A stretch of DNA of 64,000 nt from Candidatus Saliniplasma sp. (GTDB lineage: Archaea; Thermoplasmatota; Thermoplasmata; Halarchaeoplasmatales; Halarchaeoplasmataceae), in the NCBI GenBank assembly GCA_046497075.1, contig JAWOGF010000038.1, positions 1,306 through 65,305 on the forward strand, given 5' to 3'. The first letter of the stretch is position 1. Every line of letters starts with the position of its first letter. The translations under genes were made by a program, and so were the position numbers. This document shows, one piece after another, positions 42,561 to 57,421 of this stretch. Under the pieces are notes generated by a model. The model saw only the letters and a program-made list of their open reading frames with translations. It did not search any database and was not told the origin of the DNA.

Positions 42561-42715
42561 TAAGGCTTTCTAGGATGGCTGCCGGCTCATAACCCCTCAT
42601 ACCGATATGTAATGATATGGTCCGTTATTTGATGGTTGATCCTATTTATACTCCCCGTTTTTTTCAATGGCAACTGGAAATATTTAAAAAGGGTTGTGGT
42701 ATTACATAAGGCTGT

Positions 42716-43498
42716 ATGAAGGCCAAAGGAAGTGGAGTGCATATAGTTACTGGTGGTTTTGAGTACGACAGGATCCTTAAACCGATGTTGAACAGATATC
42801 CCGTCGATAGATTGGTTTTACTGAGGTCAAAATCTTCACCCTACAGGGATTCTAAAGACTTAGCTAAACAATTCATCGAAAAACTACAGGAGAACCCTAT
42901 CGATATCAATATCCATCGTGTGAATATATACGATTTCGACGATGTGTATTCTAAAGTTTTGAAGATCTTGAAAAACCAATCACATCACAATAAAAAGATA
43001 TACATGAACATCTCGTCCGCACCCAAACTCACTCTGGTAGCCATGATGAGTGCCGCCTTCATGATGAAAAACGAGGCTGATATAGAGATATTTTACGTAT
43101 CCCCTGATGATTACCTAATCCCCAAGATCATCGATAGGCTGGCGGATGTCGAAAATAATGTAGAAGAGTTGAGGGAACTCAGGGAACAATTTTTAGAGAA
43201 TGGGACAGCTATGGGTTTGAAAAATTACGAAGAAATCCCCATCTTCCCGGTAAAGAATATTACCGACAGGGATCGATACATACTCGAAGTGTTGAAATCC
43301 AGTGACGGGGTAGACTCGATAAAGGAACTGGTTCTTAAGGTCAATAGATCAAGAAAAAAGCGTATCGAAAGGTCCAGCGTACAGTACAGGTTAGAAAAAT
43401 TGAAAGAGAACGGCCTGGTTTATACTGAAAGGCATAACAAGAAACTCAGGATATCCTTGACGAGGGTTGGGGATATCTACCTGAAAGGTGATGAGTAG
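42716..43498 (+). CDS. DUF6293/HFX_2341-like putative transcriptional regulator (N-terminal alpha/beta domain plus a C-terminal winged helix)
   Basis: VHIVTGGFEYDRIL...DRLVLL...NISSAPK pattern; C-terminal SSVQYRLEKLKENGLVYTER wHTH. Confidence 0.45.
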   Translation: MKAKGSGVHIVTGGFEYDRILKPMLNRYPVDRLVLLRSKSSPYRDSKDLAKQFIEKLQENPIDINIHRVNIYDFDDVYSKVLKILKNQSHHNKKIYMNISSAPKLTLVAMMSAAFMMKNEADIEIFYVSPDDYLIPKIIDRLADVENNVEELRELREQFLENGTAMGLKNYEEIPIFPVKNITDRDRYILEVLKSSDGVDSIKELVLKVNRSRKKRIERSSVQYRLEKLKENGLVYTERHNKKLRISLTRVGDIYLKGDE

Positions 43499-43624: not shown

Positions 43625-44572
43625 CTAATCCTCATCGAATTTGCCGAGGATCATATAAATTTTGGCAGTTATCAGTGTTACGGATATAGTCAGAGCAAAA
43701 AGTATCAGAGTCCATCTTAGGTCTTCCATCATAGTGTAGTCTATGAGCATGATCAGTCCCAGTATAAGCATTATTGAGCCTCCGACTAGTTTTATGATCC
43801 GTCCTTCCTTTTTACCAAAATCGAATCTCTTCATCTGCAGAGCAGCACTGAAGTATATGATCATCTCTATGGAAAGATATATGAGAATATATAATATCAA
43901 AAAAGCTATGTACACCGGAGTTTCAAGTGCTCTCTCCGCCACGATCTGAGACCATATAACTGGAAATCCCGCTGTACAAGGAAGTTCGACCAGTGCTATT
44001 CCTGCAGCCATAGCGGTAGTTGCTACTATCAGAGTTAAAGAATCCTCCTTTTTCATCAATCCTCGTACTTTCTTGTATATCCCAGGTTTGTATCTGTCGG
44101 GTATAGTGAACGATATACCTTTCTTGAACCAGAAGAAATCTTTGATACTCACGGAAGCAAAAATTATCGCTATAACAGCAACTATCATCCTTATCCAAAA
44201 GAGGTGAGCAATAAAATGAAATATAGTGAGGGCACCGGCGATAAAGAGTCCGTAAACTAAGGCTGTAACTATCAAAAAAGTAAGACCTACCATGATGACA
44301 TCCTTTTTTCCAGAGTATAGTACTATCCCAAGTAGGAAAGACAGGACCCAGATAGAACAAGGGTTGAGCCCATCTACAAAGGCTATAAGGACTGTTAAGA
44401 CTACCAGCGGATAGGCATCACCTCTTACTTCGCCGACTATAGGTAGATCATAAGTATCGTTCGGTTCGGATCCTGTAGACCCTTCGACTAATGATATCCC
44501 GGATAGTAGGATCACCGCGATAAGAAGTGCTATCAAGATCGTTTTCCTTTTTATTTGAATTTTTTTTATCAT
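43625..44572 (-). CDS. CcdA/DsbD-like thiol-disulfide transporter membrane protein
   Basis: DGLNPCS in TM1 and LPCTAGFP in a later TM helix; ~8 TM segments. Confidence 0.45.
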   Translation of the reverse strand: MIKKIQIKRKTILIALLIAVILLSGISLVEGSTGSEPNDTYDLPIVGEVRGDAYPLVVLTVLIAFVDGLNPCSIWVLSFLLGIVLYSGKKDVIMVGLTFLIVTALVYGLFIAGALTIFHFIAHLFWIRMIVAVIAIIFASVSIKDFFWFKKGISFTIPDRYKPGIYKKVRGLMKKEDSLTLIVATTAMAAGIALVELPCTAGFPVIWSQIVAERALETPVYIAFLILYILIYLSIEMIIYFSAALQMKRFDFGKKEGRIIKLVGGSIMLILGLIMLIDYTMMEDLRWTLILFALTISVTLITAKIYMILGKFDED

Positions 44573-44617
44573 GATTAATCGTTTTAAATCGAACTTGCAT
44601 ATTTAGCCCATTCAAAT

Positions 44618-45100
44618 TTAATTGTTTGACAGCTTTTCTCCCGGGCTAGAGCATTGATCAGATTCCATACAACTTTCGATAGCATCTTCCATTTCCTGCC
44701 TATACCCTTCGTCAAAACTTACCCAGTACTCATCACCGATGAAAGTAGTTGGAACACTGGCTATGGGCACATCGTAGATTTCGACCAGTTTTTGAAACAC
44801 CTTTCTGTCTTCGGTATTGCCATAGATATCAAACTTCTTCACTTCGATATCGTCATCTTCTTCCAATTCATCAATATATTGCCGTTGTTTCTCACAGATC
44901 GGGCAATCCTCGTCCCAAAACCAATATACCGTCACTTTATCTGGATCGTCTTCTATACCTGTTCCAATATCTTCATCATCCTCGGGTACACTAGACTGCA
45001 GGGTATAGATAACAGATCCGATGATAACGATCACGATTCCCAGTGCTAGGACATTTTTGATGATCTTTTTATCCATTATACTTGATTCACTTTTCTTCAT
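44618..45100 (-). CDS. Membrane-anchored thioredoxin-fold protein (CPIC active site)
   Basis: N-terminal TM anchor; WFWDEDCPICEKQ CxxC motif; acidic extracytoplasmic domain. Confidence 0.6.
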   Translation of the reverse strand: MKKSESSIMDKKIIKNVLALGIVIVIIGSVIYTLQSSVPEDDEDIGTGIEDDPDKVTVYWFWDEDCPICEKQRQYIDELEEDDDIEVKKFDIYGNTEDRKVFQKLVEIYDVPIASVPTTFIGDEYWVSFDEGYRQEMEDAIESCMESDQCSSPGEKLSNN

Positions 45101-47576
45101 CTACAGACTTCTCTCCCCTCTTAGTTTTCATCCAAGTTACAATCATGATCACGGTTAAGATAATGGCTATCAGTATCACAAACGTCGTTATATTGTTTTG
45201 CGTAGGTGAATCTTCGTCAGCGTCGGTCGCTTCGGTCAGGGGATAATCGTCTACAAACCCTTCTCCTCTATATGGGGTGACCCAGATATCTCCATCAGCG
45301 ACTTTTCCAGCATCCGGATATTCCTTATCGTAATCGGACCAGTAATTACCCCCGATGGGGTAACCATTATCCCATTGGTTATCGCCGTGATCTCTAGCCT
45401 GAACTAGATTTTTTATAAAGTTATTATGGTAAATAGTGTTGTCATTACTTCGAAGATCTAGTGATATACCTGGATTATTGTTGTAAAGGGTATTATTATT
45501 GATGAGATTTGATCGAGATGATCGGAGAGATATCCCCGCGTTGATATTAGAATTGGCTGTATTCTTTCCTAGGGCATTATTTTTGGAACTTGAAAGATGT
45601 ATTCCATGTTCTCCGTTCCTAGATGCAGTATTTTCCTTAATTATATTGTTATCTGAGTTTTTGAGTGAGATACCGCACCAATCGTTCCCTGAGACGTTGT
45701 TAGATGTTATGGTGTTTTTCGACGAAAAGCCGAGTTGTACACCGACCGATCCTTGACTAAGGTCTTGATCTTTTACTTTTATATTCTCACACCCGACCAA
45801 GATTATCTGACCCGCATCTGATGGAACACTTTGATTATGATTATCCGTCCAATAGTAGACCGGCCTGCCGTTAACTGTATTGGTTGTACTTATCGAATGT
45901 GAATCCCAGTACTCTAACAGGTCGCCCCAGATAATGATCCCGTTTTCGGTCATCTCATTTTCTTCTAAAGAGTGTTCTTTGGAGTCTGAAAATATTACCC
46001 CGCCCCAGTCGTTGTTAGATAGTGAGTTTTTTTCGACCGCATTTCCAGTTGAGTTGGAGAATGAGACCCCGTAGCCGAAGTTGTTTGTTATGGAGTTTTC
46101 TGCAAGATGATTTTTATTTGACTTTGAAAGATGTATCCCGTGGTACTCATTCTCCGTGATGATGTTATTTGAGACGGTGTTTTCATTTGACCCTTTAACG
46201 TGGATACCGTCTTCTAGGTTTTGTGAGACGGTGTTATCAATTACTGAGTTTTGGTTTGAGGACTCTAGTCGGATCCCATGACGGCTGTTCGAGTTGATAT
46301 CATTATCTAAGATATCGTTGTTTTGGGAATTGTATAGATAGATACCGTAAAGGCCGTTTGTTAATTCATTCCTTTCGATATCGTTGTTGGATGAAAACCC
46401 CATTAGGATCCCTGCAGAGCTACTACTGACTTCGAGATCTTCGACGACCATGTCTTTACAGTCGGCCAATATCACTTGTCCGGCATCAGATGGGACCGTA
46501 CCTCCTCTTTCGCTGTGGTAATAGTAAATGGGTTTTCCCTCAACAGAGTTATCCGTAGAGATCGTGTGGGTGTCCCAATGAGCTAATTTTTCACCTGTTA
46601 TGAACACTCCATTCCCTTCAAAGATATTATCTTCGATCAGCTGATTTTTAGAGTCTGATATGTAAACGCCATATTCATTATGTAAGAGTTCGTTGCTTGT
46701 AACATTATTTTCTTCTATCGAGCCCGCAAAACTGATACCATAATCGTTTTTTTCTGCAGTATTTTCTTCAACCAAATTAGAGTTCGATTCATAAAGCTGT
46801 ATACCTACAGTGTTGTTAAACCCGGTATTATATTTGATGATATTATCATAAGAATTTATTAGGCTTATACCGAAATCGTTTTTCTCTGCATAGTTATCAA
46901 CAACGTTGTTATCGCTACTGGAATCGTAAAGGTAGATGCCCCGGTAATTGTCCAAAAGTTGATTTTCTTCGATGTCGTTGTTGAAGGAGTTTTCGATACG
47001 GATCGAGTAGACACTGTTGTTCTGTAAGATATTGTTGGAAATCTCGGTGTTCTTCGAGTCTTTGAGCCAGATCCCCTTTTTTTCATGACGTTCCAGTATA
47101 TTATCAGTAATCATTCCATTCTCGACGTTGTTCAGGTATAGACCGGTGTTTGAAAAGTATGGCTTTTCCATTCCTGACGCGTTATATATATAACAATCTC
47201 TTACGACAAAGTGGTCTGACACATTGCCTATGTATATGCCATAGCCGTATCCCCCTGCATCTATATCATATCCTTCGATCATCCAGGGGTCGTCAATATA
47301 TCCACTCCCTGCCCAATCCTGTTCTACAAAATCCTGGTCGTTATCTATCCGTATAGGCCCATGTTCGATGTAATCATCAGATGTAAGTTGTTCTACATGG
47401 GTAGAAAGATGAACTTTTTCTTCGACCCCGTCATCATGATCGATAGCCATACCCGAAATAAGTAAGATAAGACATACGGTAGCCCATACTATTATCTTAT
47501 TTTTAATCTTCACCATATATTGCACACCATACCCCGATAAAAAATTTCGGTATATATAGTTTATGTATCTATACAA
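45087..47576 (-). CDS. Large secreted right-handed parallel beta-helix repeat protein (NosD/CASH-like; two repeat blocks) with a C-terminal TM anchor
   Basis: Signal peptide; more than 25 iterations of NNxIxxNxxxGIxLxxSxxN 22-aa units; C-terminal TFVILIAIILTVIMIVTW anchor. Confidence 0.8.
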   Translation of the reverse strand: MYRYINYIYRNFLSGYGVQYMVKIKNKIIVWATVCLILLISGMAIDHDDGVEEKVHLSTHVEQLTSDDYIEHGPIRIDNDQDFVEQDWAGSGYIDDPWMIEGYDIDAGGYGYGIYIGNVSDHFVVRDCYIYNASGMEKPYFSNTGLYLNNVENGMITDNILERHEKKGIWLKDSKNTEISNNILQNNSVYSIRIENSFNNDIEENQLLDNYRGIYLYDSSSDNNVVDNYAEKNDFGISLINSYDNIIKYNTGFNNTVGIQLYESNSNLVEENTAEKNDYGISFAGSIEENNVTSNELLHNEYGVYISDSKNQLIEDNIFEGNGVFITGEKLAHWDTHTISTDNSVEGKPIYYYHSERGGTVPSDAGQVILADCKDMVVEDLEVSSSSAGILMGFSSNNDIERNELTNGLYGIYLYNSQNNDILDNDINSNSRHGIRLESSNQNSVIDNTVSQNLEDGIHVKGSNENTVSNNIITENEYHGIHLSKSNKNHLAENSITNNFGYGVSFSNSTGNAVEKNSLSNNDWGGVIFSDSKEHSLEENEMTENGIIIWGDLLEYWDSHSISTTNTVNGRPVYYWTDNHNQSVPSDAGQIILVGCENIKVKDQDLSQGSVGVQLGFSSKNTITSNNVSGNDWCGISLKNSDNNIIKENTASRNGEHGIHLSSSKNNALGKNTANSNINAGISLRSSRSNLINNNTLYNNNPGISLDLRSNDNTIYHNNFIKNLVQARDHGDNQWDNGYPIGGNYWSDYDKEYPDAGKVADGDIWVTPYRGEGFVDDYPLTEATDADEDSPTQNNITTFVILIAIILTVIMIVTWMKTKRGEKSVDEEK

Positions 47577-47680
47577 CCATATATATTTAAAGAAAAGACT
47601 CTAGACACCTAAGAAATCCTAAGAAATTTTTCTAGAAAAATATATATACTATCCTTAATTTACACCGCTCGGGATTGAAC

Positions 47681-48166
47681 ATGGAAAAAGGGACAATAAA
47701 GGTGACAACCTGCATAGTGATTTCCTTGATCATGATAGCTGGATTTTCTATCATGTTTGAAAGCACTGCAGAGGGTCCGGAAGGATATGAGGCTGAAGGA
47801 GAGGACGACATCTACACTACATTCGTCGAGAAAGATGCTGTAGAGGAGGAAGAGCCCACTTCGTACAACCTTACGGAAGGAGAGTTAGAAGAGATCGAGG
47901 AACTGATGGTAGAAGCATTGGGATTAGAAGACGGTCCGAAGCTCGAGTCGGAGATCGACCTCATGGAATGGTTCGCCGAGATGGACGAGGATGACTGGAG
48001 CGATCTGACCGAGTACACGAGCGAGACAGATGATGACACGGGATGCGGATCAGCTGGGTACGATGGCAGAGACGGACCGAGAGAGCGAGGGGAAGAAGAG
48101 CTGATGAGTCCCCCGCCGATGCAACCCAACGGCGGCGGTACATACGAGCCTGGCACCACACTCTGA
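47681..48166 (+). CDS. Membrane-anchored hyper-acidic protein ending in the EELMSPPPMQPNGGG leader-like motif (founder gene of the Cys-rich-peptide cassette)
   Basis: ATG at 47681 (the track's 47675 is a TTG). One N-terminal TM helix, then a domain that is more than 35% Asp/Glu. The C-terminus carries repeat copy R1 and stops 8 codons later. Confidence 0.55.
   Translation: MEKGTIKVTTCIVISLIMIAGFSIMFESTAEGPEGYEAEGEDDIYTTFVEKDAVEEEEPTSYNLTEGELEEIEELMVEALGLEDGPKLESEIDLMEWFAEMDEDDWSDLTEYTSETDDDTGCGSAGYDGRDGPRERGEEELMSPPPMQPNGGGTYEPGTTL
48095..48139. repeat. Repeat R1 (~45 bp) encoding EELMSPPPMQPNGGG
   Basis: gaagagctgatgagtcccccgccgatgcaacccaacggcggcggt. Near-identical copies occur at 48214..48252 and 48909..48957. 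Confidence 0.85.
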
Positions 48167-48211
48167 TGCCTGGCTGCGTAATACTCGTCAAGTTCTGCAG
48201 AAGATGTCTCA

Positions 48212-48586
48212 ATGGTGAGTTCGCCGCCGATGCAACCCAACGGCGGCGGTGGCTGGAGTGACACTTGTCCATACGGAGTATATTTAACTTACGATGAATG
48301 TTTACAAAATAATGGATGGGATGAGGAATATTGTTCTTGTGTCTGTGATTACAGCGGCAGTTGTGGCGGCCTATGTGAATTAACTGATGAATATTGGGAT
48401 TGTGTAGATGAACAAACAAGCCATCCTGTTTATTATGCGAGTATAATTATAGGTTGTGGAGTTGGTTGTATAGTGACAGATCCTGGATGGCCGTTATGTG
48501 TTAAAGGATGCATAATAGGTGCTTCTGTTGCACCGGTAGCCGTGTACACAGGCTGTTTATTTGTTGAAGGTGCTTATGAATGTTAA
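48212..48586 (+). CDS. Cysteine-rich peptide A precursor. It has an MVSSPPMQPNGGGG leader-like N-terminus and a 110-aa core with 17 Cys and a hydrophobic Gly/Cys-rich C-terminal half.
   Basis: Carries repeat R2 at its 5' end. The core begins WSDTCPYG...DEC, paralogous to peptide B. It is in the same frame as the upstream gene, separated from it by two in-frame stops. Confidence 0.55.
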   Translation: MVSSPPMQPNGGGGWSDTCPYGVYLTYDECLQNNGWDEEYCSCVCDYSGSCGGLCELTDEYWDCVDEQTSHPVYYASIIIGCGVGCIVTDPGWPLCVKGCIIGASVAPVAVYTGCLFVEGAYEC

Positions 48587-48792
48587 AACTTGAACGACAT
48601 ATACAAAAACTAATAGTGTCTTTTATAATATCCATACACCATATTAGCTTGTATATTCTAGTTAGAATTGATGTATTATCTATGCCTAGAAACTGGAGAT
48701 ATACCTTTCTACCTTTATATGTTGGTTTTACTGTAATCGCCATTATTACGTTCTATCAGGGAATCTCAGGATTCAATCAAAAAGACATATAA
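48580..48792 (+). CDS. 2-TM microprotein (70 aa), putative cognate immunity/partner protein of peptide A
   Basis: Its ATG overlaps the peptide A stop (gaATGTTAAaa), indicating translational coupling. It has two hydrophobic helices. Confidence 0.5.
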   Translation: MLKLERHIQKLIVSFIISIHHISLYILVRIDVLSMPRNWRYTFLPLYVGFTVIAIITFYQGISGFNQKDI

Positions 48793-48818
48793 TGATCGGA
48801 TAACGAGGTGAGAACGAA

Positions 48819-49166
48819 GTGTCCAGTGTATTTAGTATGAGCAGATACACATACGTGCAGAAAACTCCGACGGATGACAAATGCATGCAAGATGAGTTAG
48901 ATGAGATCGAAGAGCTGATGAGTTCGCCACCGATGCAACCCAACGGCGGCGGTGGTGGTAGTGTAGGCGACACTTGCCCTGATGAATGGAGTTACGATAG
49001 CTGGGATGAGTGTAGGTGGTACCATGATGTTGATACATGTGCAGACCTTTGTTTTGGTGAGTATGAAGAAGCTGGTATGAGTTGTGAGGCCAAAGTAGGC
49101 CTTCTTTGTGCAGATGTACGTATGCGCAAAACGAAGTATGTGGATAATATAGGATGTGTGGTGTGA
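48819..49166 (+). CDS. Cysteine-rich peptide B precursor (GTG start). It has a 47-aa acidic leader ending DELDEIEELMSSPPMQPNGGGGG and a 68-aa core with 9 Cys.
   Basis: GAGGTGA RBS 7 nt upstream. Carries repeat R3. The core SVGDTCPDEWSYDSWDECRWYHDVDTC aligns with peptide A (DTCP...DEC...C). Confidence 0.55.
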   Translation: MSSVFSMSRYTYVQKTPTDDKCMQDELDEIEELMSSPPMQPNGGGGGSVGDTCPDEWSYDSWDECRWYHDVDTCADLCFGEYEEAGMSCEAKVGLLCADVRMRKTKYVDNIGCVV

Positions 49167-49167
49167 T

Positions 49168-49362
49168 ATGAAGATATCAAAAAGAACAAAGTTTCTTGCG
49201 ATATTTATATTTGGTTGGAATATAGGTATTTTTATTGCCTCATCGATATCCCACCGAGATTTACATTTTCCACTATCAATGATGATTGGTGGAACCATTG
49301 GCGCTGTGATAATGTATATATTAGGTGTAGATAAAATGATAAAAAAACATAAAAATGATTGA
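49168..49362 (+). CDS. 2-TM microprotein (64 aa), putative immunity/partner protein of peptide B
   Basis: Its ATG lies 1 nt after the peptide B TGA. Basic N-terminus plus two TM helices (FLAIFIFGWNIGIFIASSI, LSMMIGGTIGAVIMYILGV). Confidence 0.5.
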   Translation: MKISKRTKFLAIFIFGWNIGIFIASSISHRDLHFPLSMMIGGTIGAVIMYILGVDKMIKKHKND

Positions 49363-49399
49363 TATACAGATTTTAAAAACAATGATATAAAAATAATAT

Positions 49400-49960
49400 A
49401 AATGAAGCATCTGATAGAAAGTGAAGTCGTTAATACCGTGCAGAACGAATATGATGATGAGAACATGCTGTAAGGTCTGATGATAAAACTTACAGCTACG
49501 ACAAAATAAGAAGAACATGCTCACCGATCATCCTATAAGCATCGAAGTGAACGGTACAAAATATTAGTACTTATACAATTGCCAAGGCAGCGTTACTGAA
49601 CTGATCAACTCAGATGAAGAAGTAGTCAATCAATACAGATACACCCCATTCGGCAGTCCCAGATTGAAAGTAGAAAGCGTGTACAACCCATATCAGTACA
49701 CCGGAAGAAGATTGGACGAGGAATCCTGTCAGTACTACCACCGAGCTAGGATGTACTCGCCTACGGAGAACGAGTTCATCAGCAGCGATTTTTCGGGATT
49801 CTTATGGACTCCCAGTAGATCCCATGGGATTAGAAGAGGGACCGAACATGTACACTTACGCAGGGAACGATCTGGCGAATCACAGGGATCCAAGCGGGTG
49901 TATGTATGTTTCCTTGAACTTGAGCTGTTCTGTCAAATCTCCGATATCACTAAATTCTTG
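49400..49960 (+). pseudogene. Decayed RHS/YD-repeat C-terminal core fragment (frameshifted, multiple stops)
   Basis: Frame 1 gives NPYQYTGRRLDEESCQYYHRARMYSPTENEFISSD (compare YRYTGRxxDxETGLYYYRARYYDPxxGRFISxD). After a frameshift it continues SYGLPVDPMGLEEGPNMYTYAGNDLANHRDPSG, the DPxGL...NxYxYxxNxPxxxxDPxG Rhs core end. Upstream are YD-like remnants (VVNTVQNEYDDENML) interrupted by stops. There is no N-terminal Rhs body. Confidence 0.55.
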
Positions 49961-50014
49961 AAAGTTGACAGACTCCATAAAACGAAAACATAAACTATAA
50001 TTGTTATTTGTATT

Positions 50015-50734
50015 ATGGAGGTGAGCATGTCTGAAACAGACGTATCACCATCTTTGATGATATTGGAAGTGATCGGCGTTACCATCATGGCCTTGCTCCT
50101 ATCTTTGGCGATGGGTGTCGTTTTTATCGTGTCATTGGTTGTGTTGGGATATGGAGTCGATTCAACTTTCGCACTCGGCGGCGCTACAGTTTTTGGTCAA
50201 GTGGGATTCCTGATAGTAGCATATATCTACATACGTCGTCGGAAAGTGACTGTCCCATTTGAGGCACCATCTCGATCAGATCTGTTTCACATCGGAGGAG
50301 GGATAGTTATCGCGCTGGCTACTGCAATTGGATTTTCCCAGTTGCTGTTATACTTCGATCTTATGCCGGAATCCGTTCTCGAAGAGATCGCTGAGACCAG
50401 TCCGATATTTTTGATAGTTCTAGCGATACTGTCTGTAGTACTAATTGCCCCGGCTGAGGAGCTTTTATTCAGAGGGGCCATCCAAGGCAAACTCCGTGAA
50501 CATTTTACTCCAATCCCTGCGATCACAACTGCAAGCCTTTTATTTGGTTCCCTCCATTTTCTCAACTACGGTGGAGATATCCTTCCAATAATACTGTCGA
50601 CATTACTTATCGTCGTCATCGGTGGGATAATGGGTTGGTTGTATGAACGTACGAACAACATCGTGGTTCCGATCCTGGTTCACGGGATATACAATTTCGT
50701 ATTACTGGTGCCCAACTATTTTGAGATGGTATAG
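50015..50734 (+). CDS. CPBP-family intramembrane metalloprotease (CAAX protease / Abi self-immunity family)
   Basis: EELLFRG, FGSLHF and HGIYN motifs in the correct order; 6-7 TM helices. Confidence 0.8.
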   Translation: MEVSMSETDVSPSLMILEVIGVTIMALLLSLAMGVVFIVSLVVLGYGVDSTFALGGATVFGQVGFLIVAYIYIRRRKVTVPFEAPSRSDLFHIGGGIVIALATAIGFSQLLLYFDLMPESVLEEIAETSPIFLIVLAILSVVLIAPAEELLFRGAIQGKLREHFTPIPAITTASLLFGSLHFLNYGGDILPIILSTLLIVVIGGIMGWLYERTNNIVVPILVHGIYNFVLLVPNYFEMV

Positions 50735-50834
50735 GTGTAAATACAGAAAGGAATTTACAGATAAGTATTCAGGTGGTTCACAAAATCAATAAATATACGA
50801 TAATCATCTTTCGTTCTAGAGGTTAGAGAGGAAT

Positions 50835-52310
50835 ATGGATGGAAAAACCCTTGCAGATTTTGCTGTAGAGTATGGTCAATCTTTAGAGGCTGATTATGTA
50901 GAAGCTAGGTTCGTAACCTCCATGAACGAGAACTATTTTGCTAGGAATGGTAAGTTTTTAAGTATTCAGGAAAAACCCATCAGAGGGTTAGGTATAAGGG
51001 TTCTTGTGGACGGATGTGTCGGTTTCGGATCTGTGGATGTTTTGACCAAAGATGAGGTCAAAGATAGGATCGAATCGATCTCTAAGATGGCAGGACTTAG
51101 TAAAAGAGAAATACCTATCGAATTTTCAAAAGAGAAAACAGTTCAAGACAATTGGATCGCCCCGGTTGAAGTTCCTTTCGAGGATATATCTAGGGAAGAG
51201 AAACAAGATTATGTAAAACGTTTAGATAAAAGGGTCAAAGAAGCAGGTTCTAAAAAATTTTCGTTCAGGAACAGGATAAAGAACAGGATATTCTTCCTCC
51301 ACACAAACTCCATGGATAAGTACATAGTCAACTCGGAGGGTTCTAAAATAAAATCCGACGAATCGTTCATATCACTATTTACTATACTTAACGCGAAGGT
51401 CAAAGATTCTAGTGAGCAGAGGATGTTAGGTTTAGGTGGAAGTGCGGGATGGGAATGGCTCAAAGAGGAAAACGTGCATGACTTAGTAGGCAGGGAAAGT
51501 GAAAAACTTGTCAAAACCGTAGAAAATGCCCAGAATATCCCTTTCAACGAAGATATTGACGTGGTAGTGGGACCCGAAGTCTCCGGGATAATGGCACATG
51601 AGAATGTAGGACATCCCAGTGAGGGCGATAGGATAATCGGTCGAGAAGAGGCACAGGCGGGAGGATCATTTTACGATGAATTTTTTGGTATCGATAACAA
51701 AGATCCAGTAGATCTAAACCAGTCTGAGATCAAATTGGGAAGCGAAGATGTGTCAGTCATAGACGATCCTACTATCGATCAAAGTCCGGGTTTCTATATC
51801 TACGACGACGAATGCGTCGAAGCCCGAAGTAGATACCTGATCAAGAACGGGCGGTTGAACGAACTCCTTCTTAACCGTGAGTTCGCTTCTAGATTCGGTA
51901 CCCGTTCCAACGGTGCTGCTCGTTCCTCCTCATATAGTAGAGAACCCATTCCAAGGATGTCGAACACTTTCTTTGAACCCGGAGACCACACTAAAGAAGA
52001 GCTAGTAGAAGATATCGAAAAGGGTCTGCTTATCGAGAGTTTCACCGAGTGGAACATAGATGATAGACGGTACCACAGTAAATACGTAGGATTGGAAGCA
52101 TATCTAATACGGAACGGAGAGGTCACTGACCAGATGGTCAAGCGCCCCGCACTAGAACTTACAACTCCAGCACTCCTAAAAAGCATAGAGGGTGTTTCAA
52201 AAGACTACGAATCCAGGATGAACTTCTGCGGTAAGAGCGATCCCATGCAGCCGGTGAGCGTTTCCACTGGGGGACCTTATCTGAGGATCAGAAACGTGAG
52301 GGTGGGGTGA
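50835..52310 (+). CDS. tldD: TldD-family metalloprotease (peptidase U62)
   Basis: HENVGHPSEGD (HExxxH...E) zinc site; ~490 aa. Confidence 0.8.
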   Translation: MDGKTLADFAVEYGQSLEADYVEARFVTSMNENYFARNGKFLSIQEKPIRGLGIRVLVDGCVGFGSVDVLTKDEVKDRIESISKMAGLSKREIPIEFSKEKTVQDNWIAPVEVPFEDISREEKQDYVKRLDKRVKEAGSKKFSFRNRIKNRIFFLHTNSMDKYIVNSEGSKIKSDESFISLFTILNAKVKDSSEQRMLGLGGSAGWEWLKEENVHDLVGRESEKLVKTVENAQNIPFNEDIDVVVGPEVSGIMAHENVGHPSEGDRIIGREEAQAGGSFYDEFFGIDNKDPVDLNQSEIKLGSEDVSVIDDPTIDQSPGFYIYDDECVEARSRYLIKNGRLNELLLNREFASRFGTRSNGAARSSSYSREPIPRMSNTFFEPGDHTKEELVEDIEKGLLIESFTEWNIDDRRYHSKYVGLEAYLIRNGEVTDQMVKRPALELTTPALLKSIEGVSKDYESRMNFCGKSDPMQPVSVSTGGPYLRIRNVRVG

Positions 52311-53770
52311 TAGTTATGGTAGGAGAAATTTTTGATGAGGAATTGTTGCAGGTCGGAGTTGAAACCGCTTTGAAGGCGGGAGCCGATGAAGCCATAGTTA
52401 AACTGGTAGATCAGAAAAAACATCAGATCAGATTTTCAAATTCTTCTATCGATGTGAATAAAGAATGGAGCAGTTACTACATAGATGTATTATTCACTAA
52501 AAAACCACGCCTTTCTCTAACGGGAAAGATCAACACACTCACAATCCAGGACCCGGATCCAGAGAAAATAAGAAAGAACGTTCCAAAACACGTCAGTCTT
52601 CTGGATCATTTACCGAAGAACAAGCTATACTGGGGTATGGACGATCGATCTTATAGCTCTTATCGTTCTTTGAATATATATGATGATAGGGTAGAGGGTT
52701 TTCATGAAAAAGGGCCAGATCTAGTAAGGAAGACTATCGATTCAGCTCTACAGAGTGGAGCTGACGGTGTTTCAGGTGTACTGCACTCAGCAGCTACCAA
52801 GACCGGTGTTCTAACCAGTTATGGGAACGGAGGAACGTACAGGTCTTCTTTTTGTCGAGGAACTGTCAGGGCATTTCATCGAGAGGGCGGTAGTGGACAA
52901 GGTTTGATAGTAGCTAGAGATCTTTCTGGCATAGATGAAAGGTTTCGAAAAGGTGGTGGGAAAGCAGGGAGATTGGCCAAGAAGAGTGCAGGGGCTGAAG
53001 AGGGAAAACCTGGGACTTATGATGTGATAATGGCTCCGACCGTAGGTGCTAATATCTTTGGTAATCTTCTCAATGGGACCAATCCTATAATGATGATAGC
53101 CGGTATGAGCCCTCTTAAAGGTAAGATGAACGACAAGATCGGCCCTGAAAATTTGACTGTTATCGAAGACCCCATTTTAGATGAAGGACTGAACAGCAGA
53201 CCATTCGACGATGAGGGCACTCCTTCAGAAAAAACTGAACTCATCAGAGATGGAGAACTCACCGGATTGATCCATAACACTTCTACAGCTAAATTATGGA
53301 AGTTTATAAGTATGCTAAAACTCAGATTCTGGAGAAGGCCAAAGACTACATCGAACTCAAGCTTAACACAACTTGGGATGACCGGTACAGAAGAGGATCC
53401 TAGAACACTTATGCCGACTCCTTCAAACTATCGATTCACCCCTGGATCATACAGCTTGGATGAACTCATCTCGACCTCTTCCAGACCGACGATTTTACTT
53501 ACGTCCAACTGGTATACCAGGTTCACCAATATGAGCGAGGGAGAGTTCTCTACTGTTCCTAGAGACGCTGTATTTTTAGTTCAAAATGGAGAGATAAAGA
53601 AACCGATAAGGAATCTTCGGTTGAAAGGCAACCTTTTAGAGATGTTAAAAAATATAGAGGGGATAGGGAAGGGATCGAAGCAGATCCGATGGTGGGAAGT
53701 CAACACACCCACTTTCATCCCACATATCAAGATAAAGCACTGTAAGTTCACCAAGGCTAAAGCAAGATAG
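52307..53770 (+). CDS. pmbA: PmbA/TldE-family protein (TldD partner)
   Basis: U62-family fold without HExxxH; 4-bp overlap with tldD. Confidence 0.75.
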   Translation: MIVMVGEIFDEELLQVGVETALKAGADEAIVKLVDQKKHQIRFSNSSIDVNKEWSSYYIDVLFTKKPRLSLTGKINTLTIQDPDPEKIRKNVPKHVSLLDHLPKNKLYWGMDDRSYSSYRSLNIYDDRVEGFHEKGPDLVRKTIDSALQSGADGVSGVLHSAATKTGVLTSYGNGGTYRSSFCRGTVRAFHREGGSGQGLIVARDLSGIDERFRKGGGKAGRLAKKSAGAEEGKPGTYDVIMAPTVGANIFGNLLNGTNPIMMIAGMSPLKGKMNDKIGPENLTVIEDPILDEGLNSRPFDDEGTPSEKTELIRDGELTGLIHNTSTAKLWKFISMLKLRFWRRPKTTSNSSLTQLGMTGTEEDPRTLMPTPSNYRFTPGSYSLDELISTSSRPTILLTSNWYTRFTNMSEGEFSTVPRDAVFLVQNGEIKKPIRNLRLKGNLLEMLKNIEGIGKGSKQIRWWEVNTPTFIPHIKIKHCKFTKAKAR

Positions 53771-53805: not shown

Positions 53806-56754
53806 TCAATCGAATCTCAACGCTTCCGCCGGTGAGACCTTACTAGCCTTATGGGCACTCGGTATAGCGGTTAGCAGCATAGCGACATATGCTATCACAC
53901 CTATCGTCAAGATCGAAATCCACGGTATGGAGAATTCCCAGCCCATAGGTTTGAACCCGTCGTACCACAGCAGCCATCCGATAGCTATACCCAAGCTAGA
54001 ACCCAACACTATACCAACAATAGTTATGAAAGAGTTCTCTATCAAGAAGGCGTACCTGATCATCTTCCTTTTGAACCCGATAGCTCTCATCATACCGATC
54101 TCCAACCGCCGTTCGTGTACCGCCCTTAAACTAATAATACCCAAACCAGCGATCCCAACAACTAGACCTAGCCCCATATAACCTGAAAACAGGTCGAAGA
54201 ACATGTAGGTAGCACTCATAGCATCTCTGATGATCGTTTCGATGACTACGGTCCTGAACCCGTACTGGATGAACTCTCTGTTAAGATCACGGCCAAGCTC
54301 ATCGGCATCTACGTTCTCTTCAACGCTGAAGAAAAATAGAGAGTTAGAAGTGATATTGAATTCATTTCTTACAGTTCCTTTGGACATGAAATACCCGCTG
54401 ATCGCATTTTGGTCCATGAAGCCAACGACTTTTTTTTCACGTACTTCATCTTCATGGTCGATGAACTTAACAGTCGATCCCAACTCGATAGTCTCGCCTC
54501 CCGGCGGTCCGTATTGATCAGAGGGGGCGTTTGTTATGACCAGCGAGGAATTCGACAAAACAGCATCCCATACTTCATCGTTGGACTCATATTCATCGAG
54601 ATAGTCAGAGAACCCAAATGTATTATTGCCAACGAAATTATCATCTATACCTATAGCGGATTTCCTACCTATCTCACCATCATTATCTCTCATACGTATA
54701 TTACCGCGGTAAGCCGAGTCGATATGGTTAAAATCCTCAATATCTAAGTTTTCATTGTTAATTATCTCGCTGTGCATGTCATCGATATATTTATCCTGAC
54801 CTGTCATACCCATGATCTCATACCCGCCGGATTCTTCTTCGATCATCCTATCTATGTTAGTATCGAAGATACCGACGATCATCCCCATGACTGTTATTGC
54901 GAAGATGATCAGAGCGAAGATGAAGATAGTCATACCGGTTCTGAACTTCTCTTTTAATGGGTGGGAAATGGCTGATAGAACTACCGCTTTGAAGCCAGTA
55001 TCCGACCTGCACAACCTTTCCATCCCACCTGTTAATAGATGACCGTTCAGCATTACTATGAGTACTCCTGCGGTTACCATGAATAGACCAGAAAGTATGA
55101 ACATCTCTAATCCAGAGGTGTATCCCTCGAAGAATTCTAATGTGTCCAGTGGAACGAGCCACCAGACCAGCAAGAACACCCCTACACCAGTATAAGCGGC
55201 TCTATCTCCCACCCATCTTCTAGCGACCGTTCCGATACCGATTATTATGAGAGAAATGCCAGTTACGGGTAACCAAAACTGATCCACACCTGTTCCCATT
55301 ATCGTTAAAAGAACTCCAAGGATCAACCCCGCGATGGCCATGTAAAAGACCTTTTTGTTTTTCTTAGATACGGGTGGTTCAGGTATATCTCTGATAGCTC
55401 TAACGATATTCAATTTAGATATCCGGGTAACTGAAAAGAATATCGTGCCCATTGTCAACAAAAATCCGGCAGCGAAGGCCAATATCATGCTTTCTGGGGT
55501 GAAAGTAAAATATCCAAGGAGCGATACATCCCCGCCGAATGTAGCGAATATATCTTCGAGTAAGAAGAATATAACATAAGTTAAACCAGCACCGACAAAA
55601 ACACCTACGAAGGAGGCCGCACCAGCATATATCATACCTTCGTAAGAGAATACCCTACGAAGGTGTCCTCTTTTCATACCTATCGCCCTGCTCATACCCA
55701 TCTCGGATTTCCTCTCCTCCCCCAGCATAACGAATATGTTAACCGCTAAGATGATACCGGCGATTATAGAGAAGGTACCAAAAATTAAGAAAATATCAGT
55801 GAACTGCGATATGTTATCTTTAAAATCCTGCAGTACCTGGTTCTTGTTCCCTTTAGCCTCTAATACGTTATACTCGGGATCTTCCTGCAGAAGATTCTCG
55901 ATATCCTCAAATATCTGATCGCTGTATTCAATACCGCTTTCTACACCACCTATAGAAGTGACTCTGATGTAGTTTACTTGATTTGGAAGGCTGAAGGCCG
56001 TTTGAGCATCAGATAAAGACATGATGATCTTATTGCTTCCACGGAAAGCCGCTCTTCCCTCGTTATCGATCACCTCTTTTACTGTATAGGTCATATCGTT
56101 TACTCCATTACCCCCCTCCTCCTGAGATTCTACTGTAAACAATAGTAACTCATCACCTTTCTCAGCCTCTAATTCTTCTGCTAATCGTGTATCTATAAAT
56201 ATCTCTTTTTCTCCAAGCTCAGGTTCGAAACTCTCACCATCTTTGTAAAAACGTCCAAAAGCCTCACCGTCATCAAGATCCATCCCGATAACACGGGTAC
56301 TCGGTTGAGACAGTCTTGCATCTGGATTTAATACCGGTAGAGAGCCGTGAACTTCACCACTCACTTCATCTACATTATCGATATCAGATATATCTGAACT
56401 GAGATTTTTATAAGTGCTGTGCTGTATAGGAACATAATTTCCCTCTACTGTTGTATTGTATACGGTTACGTCCGTCTGCTGCCACTCGCTGTAGATCTCA
56501 TCCTCAACCATATTGTCCATGGTATCTCCGACACCGAAAGAAGATGAAATGATAGCAGTGGCAATCATCAATCCTAAAATCACTATGACTGTATTGGTCT
56601 TCCTGCGGAATATGTTCCTACATCCGATCCTAAATAGAATTTTATGTCTATAAGCATCGAAAAGGACTATACCAACAACTACTGCGATGATACCCAGTAG
56701 AAGGACGATCATGCCTTCACCCCTCCTTAATCTGGTCCCGCTGGACAACTCCAC
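53806..56754 (-). CDS. ABC transporter permease with two FtsX-like modules (MacB/FtsX family, 982 aa, large extracytoplasmic domains)
   Basis: Two repeats of a TM-large loop-3TM architecture; located downstream of a MacB/LolD-type ATPase with a 38-bp overlap. Confidence 0.8.
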   Translation of the reverse strand: MELSSGTRLRRGEGMIVLLLGIIAVVVGIVLFDAYRHKILFRIGCRNIFRRKTNTVIVILGLMIATAIISSSFGVGDTMDNMVEDEIYSEWQQTDVTVYNTTVEGNYVPIQHSTYKNLSSDISDIDNVDEVSGEVHGSLPVLNPDARLSQPSTRVIGMDLDDGEAFGRFYKDGESFEPELGEKEIFIDTRLAEELEAEKGDELLLFTVESQEEGGNGVNDMTYTVKEVIDNEGRAAFRGSNKIIMSLSDAQTAFSLPNQVNYIRVTSIGGVESGIEYSDQIFEDIENLLQEDPEYNVLEAKGNKNQVLQDFKDNISQFTDIFLIFGTFSIIAGIILAVNIFVMLGEERKSEMGMSRAIGMKRGHLRRVFSYEGMIYAGAASFVGVFVGAGLTYVIFFLLEDIFATFGGDVSLLGYFTFTPESMILAFAAGFLLTMGTIFFSVTRISKLNIVRAIRDIPEPPVSKKNKKVFYMAIAGLILGVLLTIMGTGVDQFWLPVTGISLIIIGIGTVARRWVGDRAAYTGVGVFLLVWWLVPLDTLEFFEGYTSGLEMFILSGLFMVTAGVLIVMLNGHLLTGGMERLCRSDTGFKAVVLSAISHPLKEKFRTGMTIFIFALIIFAITVMGMIVGIFDTNIDRMIEEESGGYEIMGMTGQDKYIDDMHSEIINNENLDIEDFNHIDSAYRGNIRMRDNDGEIGRKSAIGIDDNFVGNNTFGFSDYLDEYESNDEVWDAVLSNSSLVITNAPSDQYGPPGGETIELGSTVKFIDHEDEVREKKVVGFMDQNAISGYFMSKGTVRNEFNITSNSLFFFSVEENVDADELGRDLNREFIQYGFRTVVIETIIRDAMSATYMFFDLFSGYMGLGLVVGIAGLGIISLRAVHERRLEIGMMRAIGFKRKMIRYAFLIENSFITIVGIVLGSSLGIAIGWLLWYDGFKPMGWEFSIPWISILTIGVIAYVAMLLTAIPSAHKASKVSPAEALRFD

Positions 56755-57421
56755 TTTCCATGTGAAGTACCCTTTCTGCCCTATCAGCTACTCTGTTCTC
56801 ATGGGTCACTAGGACCATAGTATGTCCGTTTTTATCGTTCAAGTCGCAGAGTATGTCCATGATCTTATCCGAAGTTTCAGTGTCGAGGTCACCGGTGGGT
56901 TCATCGGCCCAGATCATATCAGGCTCGTTGACTATGGCTCTAGCGATGGTTACACGCTGTCTTTCCCCTCCTGATAATGCTGAAGGTCTGTGAGTATATC
57001 TATGCCCTAAACCCACCATATCCAGGGCTTTTTCCGCTTTTTCTCTAGCACCTTTTGATTTTCCCGCTAGAAGTAAAGGCAGCTCGACATTTTCCACAGC
57101 TGAAAGTACTGGTAATAAATTATAGAATTGGAAGACAAAGCCCATGTTCATAGCCCTCATCTCGGTCTTTTCATTATCAGATAGTGAACTGAGATCCTTT
57201 CCTTTCAACCATACTTTGCCTTTGGATATATCATCAAGACCGGATAAGCAGTTCAACAATGTAGTCTTCCCACATCCAGAAGGCCCCATAATAGCGACCA
57301 TCTCACCTTTTTTGATAGAAAGGTCGACACCACGTAAAGCGTGGACCTTCACTTTTCCTTCATAGAACTTGTGTAATTTCTTTGATCTTATCATTCCGGT
57401 CTTCATAGTCTCCGCTTCCAT
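56717..57421 (-). CDS. ABC transporter ATP-binding protein (MacB/LolD-type)
   Basis: GPSGCGKTT, LSGGERQRVTIARA, IWADEPTGDLD. Confidence 0.9.
   Translation of the reverse strand: MEAETMKTGMIRSKKLHKFYEGKVKVHALRGVDLSIKKGEMVAIMGPSGCGKTTLLNCLSGLDDISKGKVWLKGKDLSSLSDNEKTEMRAMNMGFVFQFYNLLPVLSAVENVELPLLLAGKSKGAREKAEKALDMVGLGHRYTHRPSALSGGERQRVTIARAIVNEPDMIWADEPTGDLDTETSDKIMDILCDLNDKNGHTMVLVTHENRVADRAERVLHMESGVVQRDQIKEG

Follow-up and report, generated by a model that had tools for sequence, protein, structure and literature searches.

DNA repeats at the probable leader/toxin joint of a small, partly decayed polymorphic-toxin array in Candidatus Saliniplasma

A DNA repeat in three copies, R1, R2 and R3, links three neighbouring open reading frames (ORFs), a gene for an acidic protein and the genes for peptides A and B, in a 64,000-nucleotide (nt) stretch of Candidatus Saliniplasma sp. 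(GenBank assembly GCA_046497075.1, contig JAWOGF010000038.1, positions 1,306 to 65,305 of the forward strand). The whole stretch is called the window here, and its own coordinates are used throughout (Table 1). Candidatus Saliniplasma belongs to the order Halarchaeoplasmatales of the Thermoplasmatota, halophiles of soda-saline lakes. We consider it likely that the repeats are the conserved joint between leader and toxin in a small, partly decayed archaeal polymorphic-toxin array, a counterpart of the orphan-toxin loci of Rhs and contact-dependent inhibition (CDI) systems. Four features of a polymorphic toxin system in the Zhang/Aravind 2012 sense are present in the family: a conserved region with a sharp boundary to a variable C-terminus, a co-varying downstream ORF that is the putative immunity gene, truncated orphan arrays, and strain-level recombination at the junction. 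As judged from sequence, this is a lineage-restricted archaeal polymorphic-toxin family, undescribed so far, whose modules are common to archaeal RHS proteins.

The 24-nt core of the repeat, CCGATGCAACCCAACGGCGGCGGT, occurs in three exact copies in the window, at 48116, 48227 and 48930, all on the plus strand, and 100 dinucleotide-preserving shuffles gave no match to it. The core sits within the larger repeats R1, R2 and R3 of 33-45 nt. R1 and R3 are identical at 42 of 45 positions (48095-48139 versus 48909-48953), R1 and R2 at 31 of 33 (48107-48139 versus 48218-48250), and R2 and R3 at 35 of 38 (48218-48255 versus 48921-48958). The mismatches fall in the Ser/Pro codons, which read GTCCCCCGCCG, GTTCGCCGCCG and GTTCGCCACCG in R1, R2 and R3, respectively. 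A first-pass annotation of this DNA had described a three-copy repeat whose differences are confined to these codons. Both statements hold, and its coordinates were right to a few bases. A second repeat that it had seen joining the acidic gene and peptide B was likewise recovered (GAGTTAGAWGAGATCGARGARCTGATG, 27 nt, 24/27 identical, with 0 expected by chance). The last 12 nt of the upstream copy of this second repeat (GAGGAACTGATG) return at 48095-48106 (GAAGAGCTGATG), 66 codons downstream.

The three copies of the main repeat share a single codon register, giving (E)ELMSPPPMQPNGGG, VSSPPMQPNGGGG and EELMSSPPMQPNGGGG. The acidic gene encodes ..EELMSPPPMQPNGGG, peptide A starts with VSSPPMQPNGGGG, and peptide B contains ..EIEELMSSPPMQPNGGGG; this sequence, ..EELMS(P)PPMQPNGGG, corresponds to the 3' end of the acidic pre-toxin leader. 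In 13 family copies of the leader end, 1, 0 and 4 variable columns fell on sense-frame codon positions 1, 2 and 3, respectively. Because variable columns concentrate on sense third positions, it is the sense frame that codes, and the antisense ORFs arise as by-products. The first-pass annotation had listed long spurious ORFs created by the repeats, and ORFs were confirmed at 47812-48264 and 47961-48419 on the minus strand and at 48043-48261 on the plus strand. Their existence and spuriousness stand; the repeats are not their sole source, as the stop-poor, purine-rich acidic coding region generates them.

The codons of the repeat are rare in the host genome (CCG 18%, CCC 19%, GGC 12%), and the leader end is locally GC-rich within a genome of ~41% GC, for which GC-biased gene conversion is one conceivable cause. 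Since the three copies share these rare codons, their identity reflects common descent or conversion and not convergent codon choice. The repeats can also form a possible 8-bp GC stem, CGCCGCCG / CGGCGGCG, around an 11-nt loop (N11). Pro codons (CCN) are complementary to Gly codons (GGN), so that any sequence coding for PP...GGG tends to pair. We rejected the hairpin as a selected RNA or DNA structure, since its folding energies of -16.0, -19.5 and -17.1 kcal/mol do not lie clearly below those of synonymous recodings (p = 0.2, 0.016 and 0.19, respectively). Rfam gave 0 matches in 44-52 kb, there were no tRNAs in the window, and a tandem-repeat finder returned nothing relevant; riboswitch, CRISPR-like and integration-site readings are therefore excluded.

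When the window leader was aligned with other loci by blastn, 17 of 17 alignments ended at 48136-48140, the last base of GGCGGCGGT, and the toxin parts of the window matched only subsets of the loci. The motif also separates two strains. Loci L013 and L015, from two samples, are 99.78% identical over 6011 nt that include the neighbours, the main gene, the immunity gene and the orphan leader. Within the orphan, their alignment collapses in the codons for NSPP/GQINGG versus NSPP/HLINGA, beyond which the two strains differ in both toxin and membrane ORF. Window-like leaders also carry different cargo, which is a stub in the window, a WCHTE-type toxin in L006 (97% identity in the leader), and an intact B-type toxin in L011 (94%), where immunity B and the sequence downstream are the same as in the window. 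Additional breakpoints lie between the N- and C-subdomains of the toxins, as seen in the mosaic peptide A and in L010 compared with peptide B.

Leader DNA is 83-97% identical among Saliniplasma-like copies and 93% identical between the L013 main gene and the L015 orphan, whereas leader proteins of different lineages share only ~46% identity. Leaders that are alike within lineages and diverged between them indicate concerted evolution. As only leader and junction are alike in DNA, recombination or gene conversion at this place would swap the toxin/immunity cargo. The first-pass annotation had derived the DNA-level repeat from duplication or gene conversion at an orphan-toxin-type cassette locus, and the comparison agrees on both counts: the leader is common to many related cassettes with homology ending at the repeat, and cargo behind the same leader differs between strains (L006, L011, L013 versus L015). 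Its further analogy with pilin/antigen cassettes is superfluous.

The family is small. A profile search with alignment A1 found 31 representatives of the leader/toxin family among 1.84 billion proteins, and a word-indexed search found 11 family proteins. Motif-codon pattern scans yielded L002, a 5970-nt contig of a metagenome-assembled genome (MAG), and the soda-lake sediment contigs L003-L007 and L010; homologue look-ups added loci L011-L019. The independent assemblies in which the family layout recurs comprise NCBI MAGs, JGI soda-lake sediment and ENA. L002 (JAWODZ010000081.1) is labelled 'MAG: bacterium isolate BLK5-2.bin.76', and its leaders are 83-96% identical in DNA to that of the window; it is therefore very probably archaeal (Halarchaeoplasmatales) or mis-binned. 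A tblastn search with P0009 for a mobile-element origin found no match in plasmid and phage collections. The acidic gene and peptide B had 0 Pfam families at E <= 1, including PT-VENN, PT-TG, PT-HINT and DUF1020, and the PDB sequence search returned noise only.

The complete precursors P0021 and P0017 consist of a Sec-type signal peptide, a ~110-amino-acid acidic pro-region, a PPxxPNGGG(G) junction, which is predicted to be disordered, and a variable toxin. Across loci the leader ends in ..GPRERGEEELMSPP(P)MQPNGGG or ..LGLEDGPKLESEIDLMEWFAEMDEDDWSDLTEYTSETDDDTGCGSAGYDGRDGPRERGEEELMSPP(P)MQPNGGG and is followed by a variable domain of 100-130 amino acids. The N-subdomain of the toxin contains four conserved Cys (CP-x-G-x-Y-x2-Y-D-x-C ... 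C-x3-C), and its helices are the sole part of the AlphaFold2 model of P0003 with a predicted local distance difference test (pLDDT) score of 70-86. The C-subdomain is hydrophobic and Gly/Ala/Cys-rich, with two long helices predicted. A conserved hydrophobic N-terminus of signal-peptide type is present in three proteins, the product of the window's acidic gene (MEKGTIKVTTCIVISLIMIAGFSIMF..), P0021 (MKKGITKITSCIVISLVILAGFTVMF..) and P0017. P0021 and P0017, which run on into a complete toxin, represent the 'main' genes. Other members are without a signal peptide, and their starts are scattered along the leader (MRVKQEKENRLFEAKDWSDL.., MLEAIKKVIGEHE..DWSDL.., MRSEQNEGDCMLGTDINYGCG.., VTSVFSMSRYTYVQ..), as is typical of the orphan cassettes behind Rhs, CDI and Maf genes.

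Cassettes of this kind come in rows, with at least four consecutive ones in L002 and two to four each in L011, L012, L013 and L015, a hydrophobic ORF following each; the multi-cassette layout recurs in at least eight independent contigs, which stem from different projects. Every toxin gene is followed by a small polytopic membrane ORF, mostly with overlapping or abutting stop and start. This ORF tracks the C-subdomain of the toxin and not the leader or the N-subdomain, in five types across loci. INSCI-type toxins are followed by the same 243-amino-acid ORF in L002 and L011 despite different leaders and N-subdomains, and WCH(T/S)E-type toxins by homologous ORFs of 172 and 185 amino acids in L002, L006 and L013. 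The QCL type has ORFs of 224 and 228 amino acids in L013 and L007, the B type a 64-amino-acid ORF in L011 and the window, and the A type, found in the window and L016, has small ORFs with two hydrophobic segments. Such co-variation is a signature of toxin/immunity pairs, in which the toxins would act, or at least be neutralised, in the membrane.

The same Cys-rich toxins are borne by RHS cores in P0026, P0030-P0032, P0034-P0036, P0038, P0041, P0044, P0045, P0047 and P0050. These archaeal RHS fragments, distant members of the profile search together with homologues of P0030 from related archaeal MAGs, contain YD repeats, a ..YYYRARMYS..DPxGMxxGPNMYAYVxNNPVNxRDPSG core, a short linker ending in GGGG (PPNLxNGGGG in a subset) and the toxin. 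The toxin of P0026 is a homologue of peptide A, and the 61-amino-acid ORF that follows it in L016 is related to immunity A (29% identity over 51 amino acids). As the same modules occur on the acidic leader and on RHS cores, toxin modules circulate between two delivery platforms. A further observation concerns one Thermoplasmatota contig of 152,588 nt, which holds at least seven orphans of RHS core plus Cys-rich toxin (380-470 amino acids; P0038, P0045, P0047, P0048, P0050, P0053 and P0057) and is a large archaeal RHS orphan array.

The window itself retains a relic of the RHS platform downstream of cassette B. The remnant scores 34 bits with TIGR03696 (Rhs_assc_core; cut-off 32.5) and is also found by tblastn with P0026, P0030, P0032 and P0036. 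Compared with the intact orphans P0050 and P0053 of ~380 amino acids, it has an in-frame stop, frameshifts and a large internal deletion, with no toxin domain left. The RHS models of Pfam and NCBIfam gave no match for the acidic gene, peptide A or peptide B; only 49417-49961 passes, and an RHS core is found in the module relatives P0026, P0038 and P0045 and not in the repeat-bearing ORFs of the window.

Two side observations touch on the origin of the leader. The segment 47909-47940 (VEALGLEDGPK) of the leader is 81% identical in DNA over 32 nt to 49815-49846 (VDPMGLEEGPN) of the RHS remnant, the latter belonging to the conserved DPxGL..GPNxY motif; by a rough estimate, the chance of such a match is ~1e-3 in 3 kb. 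This hints at the C-terminal end of an RHS core as the source of the acidic leader or as a past recombination partner of it. Furthermore, YD-repeat-like fragments (..SSVYDEENRLVNMNDVEYDDE.. and ..GEVVDKVWNEYRYVGNSV..) are joined directly to the acidic leader at L012 1428-1570 (the N-terminus of P0002), at L012 2736-2948 and in P0005, which again suggests that the acidic-leader platform and RHS genes have recombined in the past.

Against this background, the window appears as a decayed snapshot, composed of a disarmed main gene, a silent intact cassette A, a dead toxin B with live immunity, and an RHS relic. The first-pass annotation had likened the locus to cassette-shuffling loci; in the window it is mostly decayed and does not amount to an intact system of this kind. 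The product of the main gene matches P0001, a Candidatus Saliniplasma sp. entry recorded as a hypothetical protein, at 100% identity, and the true start of the gene is likely ATG 47681. A hydrophobic signal peptide or anchor spans ~residues 1-32 (47675-47770; hydropathy peak at residues 6-32), Asp and Glu together make up 46 of 163 residues, and residues 1-149 align with the complete homologues P0021 (291 amino acids) and P0017 (271 amino acids). The gene is disarmed by a stop 8 codons past R1.

Cassette A is a silent intact module that lost its leader. Peptide A combines a 4-Cys N-subdomain (CPYGVYLTYDEC...C-x3-C) with a hydrophobic, Gly/Ala/Cys-rich C-subdomain and has 14 Cys in total. It is a mosaic, since the DNA of its N-subdomain shares 90.6% identity with L002 3056-3204 (P0011 type) and its C-subdomain is of the P0009/P0026 type. 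The likeness of R2 to other leaders reaches only ~12 nt upstream of the Pro codons, and cassette A is preceded by neither a visible Shine-Dalgarno sequence nor an AT-rich stretch resembling a promoter. Both the toxin ORF and the immunity ORF are intact. AlphaFold2 modeled peptide A as all-helical with low confidence (pLDDT 58.0), the PPxxPNGGG(G) stretch being below 50.

Peptide B carries an N-terminus of the VTSVFSMSRY type, which is conserved together with its upstream region (48787-48904) in L007 and L010. Its leader lacks 66 codons (198 nt) between two 12-nt GARGARCTGATG ('EELM') repeats. Full-length leaders with this type of N-terminus are found in L007, P0003 and P0004, and short leaders with separate deletions of the same central region in P0010 and P0028. 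This deletion explains why the second repeat abuts R3. The first-pass annotation had regarded the leader of peptide B as a mosaic of two segments of the upstream gene; both segments are there, and a full-length leader that lost the intervening 66 codons accounts for them better than a mosaic origin. The toxin part of peptide B shares its N-subdomain with L010 (94%), beyond which the two diverge. Relative to L011, it has a 92-nt frameshifting deletion that removed the hydrophobic C-subdomain with its helices, as L011 173-390 and 483-875 align to 48909-49125 and 49113-49503, respectively. Peptide B is therefore probably a dead toxin. The deletion is bordered by the microhomology GGTGG.T.TAC (49095-49125 versus L011 375-495). 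Both deletions in peptide B look mediated by short repeats, which suggests that this mechanism is active in the lineage. The immunity ORF of cassette B is intact, and its counterpart in L011, which follows an intact B-type toxin, shares 93.8% identity with it.

Based on this arrangement, the proposed system would work as follows. The precursor would be exported by Sec-type secretion, and the acidic pro-region would keep the hydrophobic toxin soluble or inactive, in analogy to the pro-parts of halocin C8. The PPxxPNGGG(G) stretch may be a flexible linker or a processing site. The C-subdomain would insert into the target membrane, as the C-terminal part of Tse5 does, and the downstream membrane protein would block insertion. 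Each orphan cassette consists of a leader truncated at its 5' end and the junction, followed by a different toxin with the putative immunity gene that belongs to it. Orphans would hold a stock of immunity genes and donate toxins in replacement events, through homologous recombination at the leader or junction. In this way the main gene would trade cargo with the orphans, one strain with another, and the acidic-leader platform with RHS proteins. In the window, an R1xR2 crossover would delete 111 nt and join the secreted leader in frame to toxin A, and an R1xR3 crossover over 814 nt would join it in frame to the remnant of toxin B; both outcomes are in frame because the codon register is common. 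Secretion, membrane toxicity, immunity, junction cleavage and continuing recombination are the parts of this scheme that we infer.

A more elaborate version can be imagined, in which the disarmed main gene, the 111-nt R1-spacer-R2 segment and the promoter-bearing cassette B together act as a recombinational ON/OFF-and-swap switch. The PP...GGG sequence, GC-rich, built of rare codons and able to form a hairpin, would then be kept as a DNA exchange signal that moves modules between a Sec-secreted acidic pro-protein and an RHS cage, and the acidic region ('ALGLEDGPK' resembling 'DPMGLEEGPN' of RHS) would be an RHS-derived intramolecular chaperone or neutraliser cut at GGGG. We regard this extended version as unlikely.

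Several observations weigh against the polymorphic-toxin array itself. The leader, toxins and immunity ORFs have no match in Pfam or NCBIfam, where no model is assigned to the homologues either, and both AlphaFold2 models are of low confidence (pLDDT 58.7 for P0003). Toxicity, immunity and secretion are read solely from composition and gene order. The repeats in the window are short (33-45 nt), and no R1xR2 or R1xR3 recombinant of exactly this locus was recovered. Peptide-B-type cassettes have a conserved upstream region and a Shine-Dalgarno sequence, so that some orphans may be self-expressed. A full-length RHS gene and a dedicated exporter are absent from the window. Finally, the R1-spacer-R2 arrangement is known from one MAG contig only, and the spacer has no similarity in the window or in any fetched related locus, leaving its origin untraceable.

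Three other explanations were weighed against these data. The genes could encode precursors of ribosomally synthesised and post-translationally modified peptides (RiPPs) or of class II bacteriocin-like peptides (cf. prochlorosins), where a shared leader with a Gly-Gly site would feed one processing and export machine with hypervariable cores, and the junction would not recombine. The leader indeed ends in GGG(G) directly before a Cys-rich core and is strongly conserved next to a hypervariable core; peptide-B-type genes have their own Shine-Dalgarno and conserved upstream region, and a TldD/PmbA pair and a CPBP/Abi protein lie close downstream in the window. However, RHS proteins carry these very cores as direct fusions behind their DPSG autocleavage motif, which is a polymorphic-toxin architecture, each core has its own co-varying membrane ORF, and the strain breakpoints lie at the junction. 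No C39-peptidase exporter, LanM/LanB, radical-SAM maturase or cyclodehydratase is found next to the locus in the window, whose ABC transporters (10051-13643; 53806-57421) are without a C39 domain, and the TldD/PmbA pair does not adjoin the island in L011, L013 and L017. Leader and bacteriocin family models gave no match for the double-glycine-leader class. The RiPP-like account is thus improbable in our judgment, and a cleavage role of GGGG, being compatible with both readings, makes the two not fully exclusive.

It is also conceivable that the motif was kept in old paralogues by purifying selection because the peptide serves, for example, as a linker or protease site, that the DNA has no role as a recombination substrate, and that ordinary divergence produced the mosaicism. 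In favor of this, the protein motif persists with other codons in distant lineages (NSPPGQINGGGG, SPPNLPNGGGG, PPHLINGAGGG), and the hairpin is no stronger than the peptide predicts, at the p values given above. Selection on the peptide without recombination is nevertheless contradicted by several facts, namely the identical rare codons in the three window copies, the homogenisation of leaders within lineages against their divergence between them, the abrupt loss of alignability inside the motif in two strains that are 99.8% identical up to that point, and the occurrence of the same toxin/immunity pair behind leaders of differing length and of the same leader before differing toxins. We therefore think it quite unlikely that peptide selection suffices. 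A chimera of metagenome assembly could likewise have produced R1, the 73-nt spacer, R2 and the truncated main gene, given that the window comes from a MAG contig, that P0001, P0014 and P0020 are singletons from one contig only, and that the spacer has no homologue. The 24-nt core and the repeats of at most 45 nt are, however, below usual assembly k-mers and reads, so that by this reasoning reads should span them, the same multi-cassette architecture occurs in at least eight independent contigs, and both flanks are collinear with L011, L004 and L012. An assembly artefact is very unlikely, with some small probability left for the unique R1-spacer-R2 arrangement, and the conserved leader/toxin joint of a polymorphic-toxin array remains our preferred explanation.

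Table 1. Features of the toxin island and its surroundings in the window
Feature	Position	Strand	Description
DsbD/CcdA-like membrane protein	43625-44572	-	Cys-containing transmembrane motifs
Membrane-anchored thioredoxin-fold CPxC protein	44618-45100	-	CPIC motif
NosD-like beta-helix surface protein	45087-47576	-	flanks the toxin island
'Main-type' acidic gene	47675..48166	+	signal peptide/anchor, acidic pro-region, junction motif, 8-residue tail (TYEPGTTL*)
'ELEEIEELM' repeat copy	47882..47908	+	upstream copy of the second repeat, in main gene
R1	48095..48139	+	junction repeat, leader end of main gene; GAAGAGCTGATGAGTCCCCCGCCGATGCAACCCAACGGCGGCGGT = EELMSPPPMQPNGGG
Unique spacer	48140..48212	+	73 nt between R1 and R2; 8-codon tail and two in-frame stops (TGA, TAA)
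Peptide A	48212..48586	+	orphan toxin module without leader or signal peptide; junction motif at start
R2	48213..48252	+	junction repeat at very start of cassette A
Putative immunity A	48580..48792	+	70 amino acids, two hydrophobic segments; start overlaps peptide A stop (ATGTTAA)
Peptide B	48819..49166	+	orphan cassette; GAGGTGA-N7-GTG Shine-Dalgarno/start; short leader, B-type Cys-rich N-subdomain
'ELDEIEELM' repeat copy	48894..48920	+	second copy of the second repeat, in peptide B, directly abutting R3
R3	48909..48957	+	junction repeat within peptide B
Putative immunity B	49168..49362	+	64 amino acids, two hydrophobic segments; 1 nt past peptide B stop; intact
Decayed RHS orphan cassette	49417..49961	+	YD-repeat and RHS-core remnants ..VVNTVQNEYDDEN.., ..YRYTPFGSPRLKVESVYNPYQYTGRRLDEE..YYHRARMYSP.., ..DPMGLEEGPNMYTYAGNDLANHRDPSG..
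CPBP/Abi (Rce1-like) intramembrane protease	50015..50734	+	Pfam PF02517, E = 2.6e-21; 54 nt past RHS remnant
CPBP/Abi gene followed by TldD/PmbA metalloprotease pair	50015-53770	+	

Upstream of the island, the three-gene block of 43625..47576 is also found beside the island in L013-L015 and L017/L018 at 55-72% amino-acid identity, thus in three lineages and on either side of the island (L013 5297-9073; L017 11551-15487). The block may take care of disulfides in the Cys-rich toxins, which would be secreted, or may be mere conserved synteny. Further upstream of the DsbD-like gene, 41010-43498 on the plus strand encodes a 516-amino-acid leucine-rich-repeat protein and an HFX_2341-like/Csa3-like Rossmann-domain protein; leucine-rich-repeat proteins are uncommon in archaea. 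On the other side of the island, the CPBP/Abi gene is possibly a leftover immunity gene, by analogy with Abi proteins that act as bacteriocin self-immunity factors. TldD/PmbA (TldD/E) processes microcin B17.

Enterobacterial Rhs genes are reportedly accompanied by downstream orphan rhs-CT/rhsI modules, with displacement by recombination, for example in Salmonella Typhimurium. Like Rhs, the archaeal family has a conserved region, a sharp junction, a variable C-terminal toxin and an immunity gene next to it, and its orphans keep pieces of the conserved region of variable length to which the homology for recombination is confined. Unlike Rhs, the three repeat-bearing ORFs are without a YD-repeat shell or RHS core, and delivery would depend on a signal peptide and the 110-amino-acid acidic region; the junction reads PPxxPNGGG in place of PxxxxDPxGL. 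The tracts of homology are also very short, and the genes belong to an archaeon. In the MafB/MafI loci of Neisseria and in CdiA-CT/CdiI arrays, promoter-less C-terminal toxin/immunity cassettes share a pre-toxin motif (VENN in CDI). The archaeal genes resemble MafB and CdiA in their Sec signal, conserved N-terminus, polymorphic C-terminal toxin and adjacent immunity gene. They differ in having no sequence relation to them, in precursors of only ~270-290 amino acids, and in toxins that are Cys-rich and of membrane type and not nucleases or deaminases.

For the hydrophobic C-subdomains and membrane immunity ORFs, the best functional analogue is Tse5, a pore-forming Rhs toxin of Pseudomonas aeruginosa, whose hydrophobic C-terminal fragment enters membranes, depolarises cells and is neutralised by the immunity protein Tsi5 (PMC10684867). 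The two have no detectable sequence likeness, the archaeal modules add a disulfide-rich N-subdomain, and their pore formation is predicted from composition. Halocin C8 offers another parallel. Its precursor ProC8 consists of an N-terminal HalI immunity part and a C-terminal halocin of 76 amino acids with 10 Cys (bioRxiv 10.64898/2026.07.27.741052), and some RHS proteins also carry HalC8 domains according to Makarova et al. 2019, which that preprint cites. Both are precursors of halophilic archaea, secreted in the case of halocin C8 and predicted to be so here, with a long N-terminal pro-part, a C-terminal Cys-rich hydrophobic peptide that is the weapon of halocin C8 and the putative one here, and an RHS association. 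The present modules differ from halocin C8 in that a separate downstream membrane protein is the putative immunity factor and the signal is Sec-like and not Tat. Membership in the halocin C8 family was rejected, with no TIGR04449/NCBIfam hit at E <= 1 (8 members) and an hhalign probability of 0.4% against the mature HalC8 sequence.

Documentation of warfare among archaea is poor, and to our knowledge archaeal polymorphic toxins are known almost solely from computational surveys. The family described here is a compact and tractable archaeal example, with precursors of 270-290 amino acids, toxins of ~110 amino acids and immunity proteins of 60-240 amino acids, from uncultured halophilic Halarchaeoplasmatales. 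One set of toxin modules is found on two platforms, the acidic leader with its Sec signal and RHS cores, and the junction of exchange is located to the codon. The toxins are a potential source of salt-active antimicrobial peptides, and the cassettes a potential marker of strain-level diversity and kin discrimination in soda-lake sediments. Taken together, the finding would extend the established Rhs/CDI/Maf paradigm to a new lineage and involves no new principle.

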